Assembly (NCBI GenBank): GCA_964626905.1
Contig: CAZVHA010000001.1
Location: 449,803-513,802, forward strand
Source: an uncultured bacterium
Lineage (GTDB): Bacteria > Chlamydiota > Chlamydiia > Chlamydiales > SM23-39
Reading direction: 5' to 3'
Length of the DNA stretch: 64,000 bases
Shown here: one piece after another, positions 14,690-18,446 of the stretch
Position numbering within the stretch: the stretch's first letter is position 1
Layout of the letters: each line of letters begins with the position of its first letter
Made by a program: the position numbers and the translations under genes
The notes under the pieces: generated by a model
Told to the model about the DNA's origin: nothing
The model's input: the letters and a program-made list of their open reading frames with translations, nothing else
The model's database searches: none

Positions 14690-14873
14690 GAGGCAGCTGC
14701 AAAACTGCTTTGCCCGGAAAAATCGATGACTTTGAGCCACGTTACGAGTGACAGCGAAGCTGCCACGATCCATTCGACGAGGCCAACCCCTAGTGGGTTG
14801 GCTGAGGAGAATGGACGCAACGTGGCTCAAAAGGGCGATTTTAACGGGCAAATGAGTTTTGCTCAGCTGCCTC
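14690..14873. mobile_element. RPE/MITE-like palindromic element family B, copy 1
   Basis: Ends GAGGCAGCTGCAAAACT / AGTTTTGCTCAGCTGCCTC; nested stems; near-identical to 16326-16511. Confidence 0.85.
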
Positions 14874-15957: not shown

Positions 15958-16324
15958 CATTCTCGGCCTTGGCACTGACATCATTGAAATTGCCCGGATT
16001 CAAGAGAGCATCGCAAGACATGGACAACACTTTCTCGATCGGCTATTTACCCATCAAGAACAAGAGTATTGCCTAAAGTACAAAGATGCAGCGCCCCACT
16101 TTGCGGGCAGATTCGCCGCAAAAGAGGCTGTTGCAAAGGCGCTCGGCATCGGGTTTGGGGCTAAGCTCTCTTGGCTCGACTTCGAAATTTTAGGAGATGA
16201 ATACAATAAGCCGACGGTCCATTTTACAATAGATGCCAAAGAAAGGCTGCATCAGCCAAAAATCGCCGTTTCGATCAGCCATTCGGCCACTGCAGCAACA
16301 GCGGTTGCCATCTGGTTCTCATAA
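15938..16324 (+). CDS. acpS: Holo-ACP synthase
   Basis: GLGTDIIEIAR, AGRFAAKEAVAKALG, SISH. Confidence 0.95.
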   Translation: MTMKEDSILGLGTDIIEIARIQESIARHGQHFLDRLFTHQEQEYCLKYKDAAPHFAGRFAAKEAVAKALGIGFGAKLSWLDFEILGDEYNKPTVHFTIDAKERLHQPKIAVSISHSATAATAVAIWFS

Positions 16325-16325
16325 T

Positions 16326-16511
16326 GAGGCAGCTGAGCAAAGCTGCTTTGCTAAGGAAAAATCGATGATTTTGAGCCACGTTACGAGTGGCAGCAAAGCT
16401 GCCACGATTCGTTCGACGAAGCCAACCCCTAGTGGGTTGGCTGAGGAGAATGGACGCAACGTGGTTCAAAAGGGCGATTTTAACGGGCAAATGAGTTTTG
16501 CTCAGTGCCTC
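16326..16511. mobile_element. Palindromic element family B, copy 2
   Basis: Fills the gap between convergent stop codons; ends GAGGCAGCTGAGCAAA / TTTGCTCAGTGCCTC. Confidence 0.85.
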
Positions 16512-17499
16512 ACAATGAGAATGGGAGTAGATAGCTGAAGACAAATGCGTTGACCTGCTCTGGGCACGACTTTGCCAAAACTCTCCTCTCGTAGGTGAAG
16601 CGGAGCGTCCCATAGACACCGATCCGATAGCCATAGCGGAAGCCCAAATCGATCGATTTTTGCCGAATTTTCGCATATCCATTAAAATGATTGATGGAGA
16701 CAGTGGTGTAGCGCCCATATCCGTTGATCCCGTCGGCAAAAATGGCAAATTTGTGTCGATCGTCGTAGTTGGTCTCAATCGAAAAAATGCCCCTCACCCA
16801 GGGAGAGCCCTTATTTGCGTGACCGACAGCGCCAAACCCCCAAAAACGCCACGCCCATGCGTCGGAAAAGTCAAATTCCTTCCCAAAAGCGAAATTGAGC
16901 TCTAAGTCGCAGTTGGCGTGATAGGGACAGCTGATATCGTGCAAACTATCTGTATTCGTAAATCTCGCACTGACTCCTGTGGCGAGGCTCATCTTATCGC
17001 CAATGATGTCGTCGAGCCAAAGATAGCGCGCTTGGGCTGCAAAGCTCCGAAAATTGAAGTTTTGCTTGCTCGTGTCGGCCAGTTGCAATTCAGCATCGAC
17101 GCTCCATTCAGGAGTTGGCGAAAAGTCGAGTCCGAGATAGGCGACATTCGATTGAAATGTATAGTTTAATTTGGGGACGCCCTCTTGTACTTTATCGAAA
17201 AAACTGTAAGCGTAACTTCCCAAAAAATGAAACTCCAAGCAATCGCCAAACCAGGGCTGCACTTCGAGTGCAGAACCCAAAAAAGGGAGTAAAAGCAAGA
17301 GGAGCTTCTTCAGAGTGAATTGCAAAACTCCACGGCAGCGAAAAATCGATGATTTTGAGCCACGTTGCGAGTGCCAGCAAAGCTGGCACGGTCCATTCGA
17401 CGAGGGCAACTCCTTGCGAGTTGCCTGAGGAGAATGGACGCAACGTGGCCCAAAAGGGCGATTTTTTCGCGCCGAAGAATTTTGCAATTCACTCTTCAT
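16510..17499 (-). CDS. Exported, probably outer-membrane hypothetical protein with an in-frame family-B insertion after the start
   Basis: ATG overlaps trxB TGA; signal peptide [14 protein letters not shown] follows a 62-codon insert; aromatic-rich, beta-strand-like mature part. Confidence 0.75.
17313..17494. mobile_element. Palindromic element family B, copy 3 (divergent), flanked by TTCA direct repeats
   Basis: Ends GAGTGAATTGCAAAA / TTTTGCAATTCACTC; TTCA at 17309-17312 and 17495-17498. Confidence 0.85.
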
Positions 17500-18446
17500 T
17501 CGATTCCCATGTGGCTGAGCCACCGCTCGGCATCGAGGGCAGCCATGCATCCTGTCCCTGCAGCAGTAACAGCTTGTCGGTAGGTCGGATCTTGCACATC
17601 GCCTGCGGCAAAAACCCCTTCGACCGAAGTGCGCATCGAACCGGGCTTCACTCGAATATATCCGACATCGTTCATCTCAATTTGGCCTTTCAAAAAGTCG
17701 GTATTGGGCTTATGGCCAATTGCAAAAAAAACGCCGCCCGCATCGCGCTCTTCGGTTTTCCCATTTTGGATATTTTTCAAGAGCACTTTCTGCACAATCT
17801 TATCCCCGGTGATTTTTTCGATGACGCTATTCCAAAGGATTTTGATTTTCGGGTGTTTTTGAGCCCTTTCAGCCATGATTTTGGAAGCTCTCAGCGCATC
17901 TCTTCTATGGACGATAAACACTTGGCTCCCATACTTTGTCAAAAAAGTGGCCTCTTCAACCGCGCTATCTCCTCCGCCGATGACATAAAGGGGGCGACCT
18001 CGAAAAATGGGAGCTGCGCCGTCACAAACGGCACACGCGCTCACCCCTTTTTGCCAAAATTCCCCATCGCCAGCACCTTCAATTTCGAGTTTTTTGGCAG
18101 TTGCACCCGTCGCGACGATGAGCGCTTCGCTTTCCACTTCTGTTTGCGATCCGTGAATTTTGAAGGGGCGCTTCGACAAATCGACCCACTCGACATCTTC
18201 GGTGAGAATCGTTGTTCCGAAGCGGATCGCTTGCGCTCGAAAGCGATCCATCAATTCAGGCCCCATGATCCCTTCAGGAAATCCCGGATAATTTTCGACA
18301 TCGGTCGTGGTTATCAATTGTCCGCCTGGAGGTCCCGACTGAAACCCTTCGTAAAGGAGCGGCACTAAATTGGCCCTCGCTGCGTAAATGGCAGCTGTGT
18401 GCGCAGCGGGACCAGATCCGATGATGACTAATTTTCGTTTTTCCAT
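17496..18446 (-). CDS. trxB: Thioredoxin reductase
   Basis: [35 protein letters not shown]. Confidence 0.97.

Follow-up and report, generated by a model that had tools for sequence, protein, structure and literature searches.

How a gene fares when a mobile repeat lands directly behind its start codon is the question raised by a putative outer-membrane protein (OMP) gene of an uncultured chlamydial bacterium. We analysed this locus within a stretch of 64,000 nucleotides (the window, whose positions are used below unless a contig is named), together with its own genome (G000) and the genomes of relatives.

The trxB–OMP junction

All features of the junction lie on the minus strand. The thioredoxin reductase gene trxB occupies 17496..18446 in the list of open reading frames and ends with ATG GGA ATC GAA TGA, its stop codon being at 17498-17496. 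The ATG of the OMP gene (17499-17497) overlaps this stop within the string ATGAA at 17495..17499. A repeat element of 182 bp follows at 17313..17494, with the ends GAGTGAATTGCAAAA and TTTTGCAATTCACTC and the shape of a long branched hairpin. It is flanked by the 4-bp target-site duplication TGAA, whose left copy is at 17498-17495 and whose right copy is at 17309..17312, and the letters GAAGCTC come after the second TGAA. The codons of the native signal peptide are at 17269..17310. A cut is predicted after GSA and before LEVQPWFGD, this site being inferred from the conserved pattern and not computed. At present the OMP gene spans 16510..17499 and consists of the ATG, 62 inserted codons and a conserved body of 267 codons.

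An earlier reading made from the sequence only had claimed that both the frame and the ATGA overlap were kept. This was correct: the open reading frame at 16510..17550 crosses the element without a stop, and the 186-nt footprint (the element plus one TGAA) contains no stop in the OMP frame and encodes 62 residues counted from the ATG. Logan contigs from four public DNA runs were aligned to positions 16100-18000. Both junctions of the insert were spanned by contigs of two runs (X1 and X4), so an assembly artefact was rejected.

The junction could be read in 18 relatives, where trxB orthologs (70-83% identical, with a matching C-terminus MGIE) adjoin the OMP gene; a further locus (L037) ended before trxB. 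No insert was found in any of the 18. In all of them the trxB stop overlaps or abuts the ATG, and M[KR][KR]x..., a hydrophobic run and LEVQPWFGD follow, which is the kind of start that had been expected from an ortholog alignment. A run from a different study (X5) provided a 1081-nt contig about 96% identical to the window (35 differences in 837 nt and 10 in 241 nt). In this contig, position 17312 is joined to 17498 with 3 other letters between, and the minus-strand translation reads MGIE, a TAG stop and directly MKKLLLLL (ATG AAG AAG). Excising the element and one TGAA had been predicted to restore ATG AAG AAG CTC, and the X5 empty site reads accordingly. Because a strain of such high identity has an empty site, our comparison indicates that the insertion is lineage-specific and recent.

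The element and its family

BLAST against the own genome (1.72 Mb in 11 contigs) gave 18 matches, comprising 11 full-length copies and fragments. The full-length copies span 181-186 bp, a size too small for a transposase, and none is found inside. Their ends in the alignment, GAGGCAaTTGCAAAAC...GTTTTGCAAcTGCCTC, are conserved over the 11 copies. Perfect 4-bp duplications flank seven of them (TGAA, TAGA, TATT, TAAC, TTTA, TTGA and TAGG), two have an imperfect duplication and two have none. All seven perfect duplications start with T. With its inverted ends, fixed 4-bp duplication, multiple copies and filled and empty sites, the 182-bp repeat is a non-autonomous transposon (MITE), in agreement with the earlier proposal of a mobile repeat right after the start codon. 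That reading had also described its copies 1 and 2, two neighbours in the window, as lacking a clear duplication. The statement holds for copy 1 (14690..14873, minus strand), which has none, but not fully for copy 2 (16326..16511), where an imperfect duplication is present in a family whose duplications are mostly perfect.

The copy at the trxB–OMP junction has variant ends, GAGTGAAT (17480-17494) and ATTCACTC (17313-17327), compared with the consensus GAGGCAAT and A[TC]TGCCTC. Two positions are altered in both arms with pairing preserved, and these ends were found in no other copy of the assembly. The outer arms of the element are 37 nt long and 81% complementary. Its predicted RNA fold has an energy of -116.9 kcal/mol (z = -13.6), which was equalled by none of 200 shuffled sequences. 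Rfam, searched in E-value mode over 16000-18000, returned no match. A scan of 16250-17650 for promoters and terminators found nothing within the element, and the counts were at the level of shuffled sequence.

Copies in coding sequence and at gene borders

Four of the 11 copies lie in coding sequence. Each of them is exactly 182 bp long and stop-free in the frame of its host gene, and the footprint including the duplication is 186, a multiple of 3, in all four. The seven non-coding copies are 181-186 bp long, and the footprint is a multiple of 3 in only one. This distribution fits a filter by which only frame-keeping, stop-free insertions would survive in genes. A count of in-frame against out-of-frame intragenic copies had been suggested before; all four proved to be in frame, and we recast the result as one of length.

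Besides the copy at trxB–OMP, the intragenic copies concern three genes. The first (C9:34998-35179) has a mid-gene position in a sensor kinase of 541 aa with PAS, HisKA and HATPase domains. The four orthologs examined from the same genus measure 473-487 aa, against 548 aa from stop to stop in G000, and they align on either side of a 62-residue gap, the insert being absent there. The PAS profile match stops at the insert, and the rest of the histidine kinase is intact despite the 62 aa in the PAS domain. The second (C9:53084-53265) follows the eighth codon of a gene for a conserved protein of 244 aa. Orthologs of this protein start with MKPSVTFATSCWEKDWR, while the G000 protein reads MKAHSHHK, then 62 aa, then KVTFATSCWEKDWR. 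In the orientation opposite to that of the trxB–OMP copy, the family has an ATG in frame at a distance of 7 codons from its end. The third (C3:181566-181747) is located between the stop of the upstream gene and the first membrane helix of Lnt, with the same orientation and phase as the trxB–OMP copy. An ATG is found at this insertion spot in seven of the eight same-genus relatives examined and is absent in G000; in the eighth, G002, the upstream region is different. Three of the four intragenic copies are at the extreme N-terminus.

Three other copies lie at stop codons, and the stops are kept. One is at the 3' end of the OMP gene itself (16326..16511, C1:466128-466313, minus strand). It separates the T from the GA of the OMP stop codon, where the first GA of the element rebuilds TGA and the C-terminus SYLLPFSL is unaltered. 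The OMP gene is bracketed by two family copies in the same orientation. The X5 contig extends 36 nt into this 3' copy, which means that the 3' copy is older than the 5' copy. In a TamB-family gene, TGA is also rebuilt by the leading GA of the element, and in the ATP-synthase c-subunit gene, TAG is within the duplication.

The remaining four copies are intergenic. They lie upstream of an ATP/ADP translocase gene, upstream of rpsG, 5' of a TRAM-domain gene and beside tRNA-Ile. The copy 5' of the TRAM-domain gene ends 16 nt before its ATG (14890). Among the copies C2:49265-49449 and C4:168956-169136, one is 10 nt upstream of the reading frame of rpsG (ribosomal protein S7) and the other follows tRNA-Ala and tRNA-Ile at a distance of about 50 nt; both contexts are highly expressed, and transcripts from them would contain the hairpin.

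Five of the 11 insertions are at or next to a stop codon (C1:93296, C1:342957, C1:466313, C1:467296 and C3:181747). The stops touched are the trxB TGA, the c-subunit TAG, the OMP TGA and the TamB TGA, and the Lnt copy is 4 nt past the upstream stop. As an observation without statistics, this may reflect a stop-like target preference or simply survival at gene borders.

Relatives in other genomes and a candidate transposase

Outside G000, full-length versions of the element are few: among 40 relatives searched, they occur with 74-76% identity in G004 and G018, and four more genomes have matches to the ends only. An exact scan of the genome contigs with a 39-nt degenerate core pattern gave no match. 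When the 17-nt end was searched in one genome per species, at least 125 matches were obtained, against about 139 expected by chance by our own arithmetic. A partner end was found 37-1179 bp away for 37 of 87 end matches (80 loci). The 26 paired elements listed are 110-239 bp long and have the same termini and different cores, often with 4-bp duplications. Such paired ends were found in Chlamydiota, Desulfobacterales, Syntrophus, Smithellaceae, Treponema, Victivallales and Chthonomonadia. The loci L090-L167, from metagenome-assembled genomes (MAGs) of several phyla, have common termini of 16-17 nt (GAGGCAATTGCAAAAC) around unrelated cores, and Desulfobacterales contribute at least nine loci. 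This pattern suggests that one widespread transposase group spawned many MITE families.

None of the 26 paired elements from other genomes was in a mid-gene position, so in-gene insertion as a habit of the wider family was unsupported. We also rejected one locus (L109, ends 1179 bp apart) as an insertion sequence (IS). Its two open reading frames resemble, by sequence, a PIN toxin and an AbrB antitoxin and not a transposase, and its ends are taken to be two separate MITEs. As a separate observation, L108 (a chlamydial MAG) and L131 (a MAG labelled Pseudobdellovibrionaceae) have identical ORF coordinates and the same DUF155 score; they may be the same sequence binned under two names.

One end match lay 92 nt in front of open reading frames with DUF772 and DDE_Tnp_1 domains. 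A search of 250 genomes of the same order with this transposase then revealed an IS of 1575 bp, present in G147 in 12 identical copies, with the ends GAGGGAATTGCAAAAC on both sides (for example L213 760-2334, on contig C1 of G147). These ends are one letter from the MITE consensus. The duplications of the IS are also 4 bp (GAAA and ACTA in G147, TAAA in a relative), and IS copies with matching ends occur in G259, G108 and G216, the last belonging to the window's own family. The transposase of 401 aa matched PF01609 DDE_Tnp_1 with 52.3 bits (cut-off 23) and PF05598 DUF772 with 33.2 bits (cut-off 23.1). It fell below all curated NCBIfam IS-family cut-offs, the best being IS1182 (86.6 versus 270), with IS5_4 at 61.4 versus 140. 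The profile scores place it in the IS5/IS1182 superfamily only, and the G147 IS may represent an undescribed IS5/IS1182-like group. Our results suggested that the 1575-bp IS is a likely candidate partner of the 182-bp MITE. In G000 itself, no ends paired at IS distance and no transposase match were detected in an assembly that is 94.8% complete. Repeats are often missing from assemblies of this kind.

The 62-aa insert of the kinase, used as a protein query, found related peptides in predicted proteins of other organisms. Among these (P0003, P0002 and P0005) are a UvrA-like protein in which residues 4-64, at the N-terminus, correspond to the element and a protein where it precedes a lipoprotein-type signal peptide, with the called start within the element. 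In P0003, a related element lies inside an AMP-binding enzyme whose tail reads as frame-shifted. Start-site annotation is unreliable near such repeats.

Constraint on the OMP gene

Searches across the order found relatives of the OMP gene in 38 of 41 genomes, G000 included. Its body of 267 residues aligned with 15 orthologs at 54-80% identity, and the conserved C-terminus SYLLPFS[LF] is present in G000 as SYLLPFSL directly before the stop. The protein matched no family in Pfam or NCBIfam. An AlphaFold2 model built from 16 sequences was all-beta with 12 strands, at low confidence (pLDDT 56). We therefore call the product a putative outer-membrane beta-barrel, a name based on its signal peptide, strand pattern and C-terminus.

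The other 15 orthologs share one residue at 88 alignment columns, and G000 departs at none of these; the other sequences depart at 0-10 such columns. A comparison with the X5 strain gave 26 synonymous and 7 non-synonymous codon differences. One of these 7 is at a conserved column, and the conserved glycine is kept in G000. The absence of losses, the excess of synonymous changes and the retained glycine together argue that the OMP gene is not decaying, where the constraint is measured over the whole lineage and not specifically since the insertion.

These data bear on the possibility that the insertion silenced or crippled the gene, by an initiation block, RNA cleavage or export failure, and that the intact reading frame is a young pseudogene which drift has fixed in a small population of intracellular bacteria. 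A very stable hairpin beside the start codon and the recent date of the insertion would fit such a loss, and the frame-shifted tail of the AMP-binding enzyme shows, in another organism, that the family can apparently break genes. However, the gene is retained widely in the order and stands beside trxB in all the readable loci, which suggests that it matters. Also against a loss are its intact conserved residues, the assembly of the insert allele in two runs, and the stop-free copies in three other genes. We consider silencing rather improbable.

Proposed translation of the extended OMP gene

We favour a reading in which the OMP is still made by read-through from its old ATG, and give it about an even chance of being right. 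The sequence shows that the MITE cut into TGAA at the overlap of the trxB stop and the OMP start and duplicated these four letters, by which both the trxB TGA and the coupled OMP ATG were retained. The overlap and the frame were preserved together with them, with 186 stop-free nucleotides in front of the old second codon. From here on we propose that ribosomes that finish trxB would begin again at the ATG that was kept and would open the hairpin while translating the 62 extra codons. This extension has a mean hydropathy of -0.91, 11 K/R against 2 D/E, and no hydrophobic run. Being hydrophilic and basic, it would form a long, positively charged leader ahead of the native signal peptide. It would remain cytoplasmic and leave when signal peptidase cuts after GSA, and the mature protein would be the same as before. 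The insert would be tolerated through the loss of the extension with the signal peptide, a possibility that the earlier reading had raised, and not through an added function.

Several observations support read-through from the old ATG, among them the lack of decay in the OMP gene. The host appears to tolerate the family in other genes, namely the PAS kinase and the 244-aa protein, all four intragenic copies being stop-free. And the allele with the insert is the form assembled in X1 and X4. On the other side, the hairpin of -117 kcal/mol starts 4 nt past the ATG and should block fresh 30S binding, which would leave coupling to trxB as the only route to initiation. A presequence of 62 residues before a Sec signal would also be unusually long, and no partner transposase was found in the 94.8%-complete assembly. 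Moreover, each copy of the family has just one or two stop-free frames among the six. As two of the six are stop-free in the trxB–OMP copy, an open frame had by itself a chance of about 1 in 3.

This prior chance also favours a different start. An in-frame TTG lies in the right terminal repeat of the MITE (17325-17323, minus strand; 17323..17325) and is a candidate alternative start. If initiation had moved there, a near-normal signal peptide (MQFTLKK...) would be produced, and the 57 codons upstream would be open only through the youth of the insertion. The TTG is 4 codons before the old second codon and has a GGAG just upstream. An older copy of the same subfamily (CGTGGAGTTTTGCAA) immediately precedes the first membrane helix of Lnt, sharing the orientation and phase of the trxB–OMP copy, and the ATG used by the orthologs is gone there; in the opposite orientation, the family provides the in-frame ATG mentioned above. 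But the spacing between GGAG and TTG is just 2 nt, well short of the usual 5-9 nt. The TTG also lies within the 3' arm of a 20-bp basal stem and would therefore be exposed only if the stem were opened, for example by a ribosome coming from the ATG, and the upstream ATG with its coupling context is untouched. In our view a start at this TTG is clearly less likely than read-through from the ATG, but it is the main rival.

The sequence-only reading had named a downstream CTG as the alternative start (17313-17311, formed by the last base of the element and TG). This codon is exactly at the former ATG position. However, CTG is a very rare start codon in bacteria, the nearest GGAG is 14 nt off, and the codon is buried at the base of the stem. 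Its use seems very improbable, and the TTG is the better candidate.

A broader idea goes beyond read-through from the old ATG. The 182-bp lineage might be a chlamydial equivalent of the Rickettsia palindromic elements (RPEs), namely a coding-compatible MITE, with its peptide built into proteins and regulation rewired at trxB–OMP. Three features would fit: the 186-nt footprint is divisible by 3, frames without stops exist in either orientation, and the GA end rebuilds TGA. We regard this idea as tentative and possible rather than probable. If it is true, the MITE could settle in genes and at their edges, and its peptide would be part of a PAS sensor kinase. The hairpin would tie OMP synthesis strictly to ribosomes arriving from trxB, which means that regulation would be rewired as well as residues added.

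Discussion

The behaviour of the 182-bp MITE resembles that of RPEs, which are also short palindromic mobile repeats that keep the frame within genes of an obligate intracellular host. With RPEs the gene product gains an additional peptide, and the same is predicted for the MITE. The likeness is one of behaviour and not of membership, and it lies in the in-frame insertions into the kinase, the OMP and the 244-aa protein that are absent in orthologs. The MITE differs in coming from Chlamydiota; its terminal inverted repeats are clear, its duplications are of 4 bp, and an IS can be named as its candidate partner. In addition, it is intragenic in just 4 of 11 copies, mostly at the extreme N-terminus. 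To our knowledge, in-frame selfish DNA within genes is known mainly from Rickettsia, and we know of no account that made the movement mechanism of RPEs less obscure. In the sections on RPEs of a 2024 review, in-frame MITE fusions are described with RPEs as the extreme case, nearly half of the 44 RPE insertions in R. conorii are given as translational fusions within ORFs, and the original papers are cited as Ogata 2000 and 2002 (PMC10969869).

Two other comparisons are useful. A 4-bp duplication is a hallmark of the IS5 group. Like members of the IS5/IS1182 superfamily, the candidate partner IS encodes a transposase with DUF772 and DDE_Tnp_1 and makes 4-bp duplications (GAAA, ACTA and TAAA), and its ends are nearly those of the MITE; the differences are that its transposase is below the curated cut-offs and that none is found in the G000 assembly. 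Correia elements of Neisseria are small inverted-repeat hairpins at gene borders in operons, sometimes in frame, and they duplicate TA. ERIC elements are likewise small inverted-repeat elements, forming long RNA hairpins at gene borders within operons, that are sometimes in frame, according to the part of the 2024 review that deals with them (PMC10969869). The 182-bp MITE differs from ERIC and Correia elements in its ends and duplications, and no promoter- or terminator-like motif was found in the trxB–OMP copy. Full-text literature searches returned no paper on chlamydial MITEs, and the string 'Chlamyd' does not occur in the available text of the 2024 MITE review.

In conclusion, the trxB–OMP insertion does not establish a new principle, and its consequence at the protein level is a proposed one. 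In practice, gene callers will extend or misplace starts beside such elements. For the biology of the family, our results place frame-keeping insertion in an unrelated obligate intracellular lineage and tie it to a cut-and-paste family with clear ends and a candidate transposase. As the ends, the 4-bp footprint, the candidate transposase and a dated filled/empty polymorphism are now at hand, the process becomes testable.
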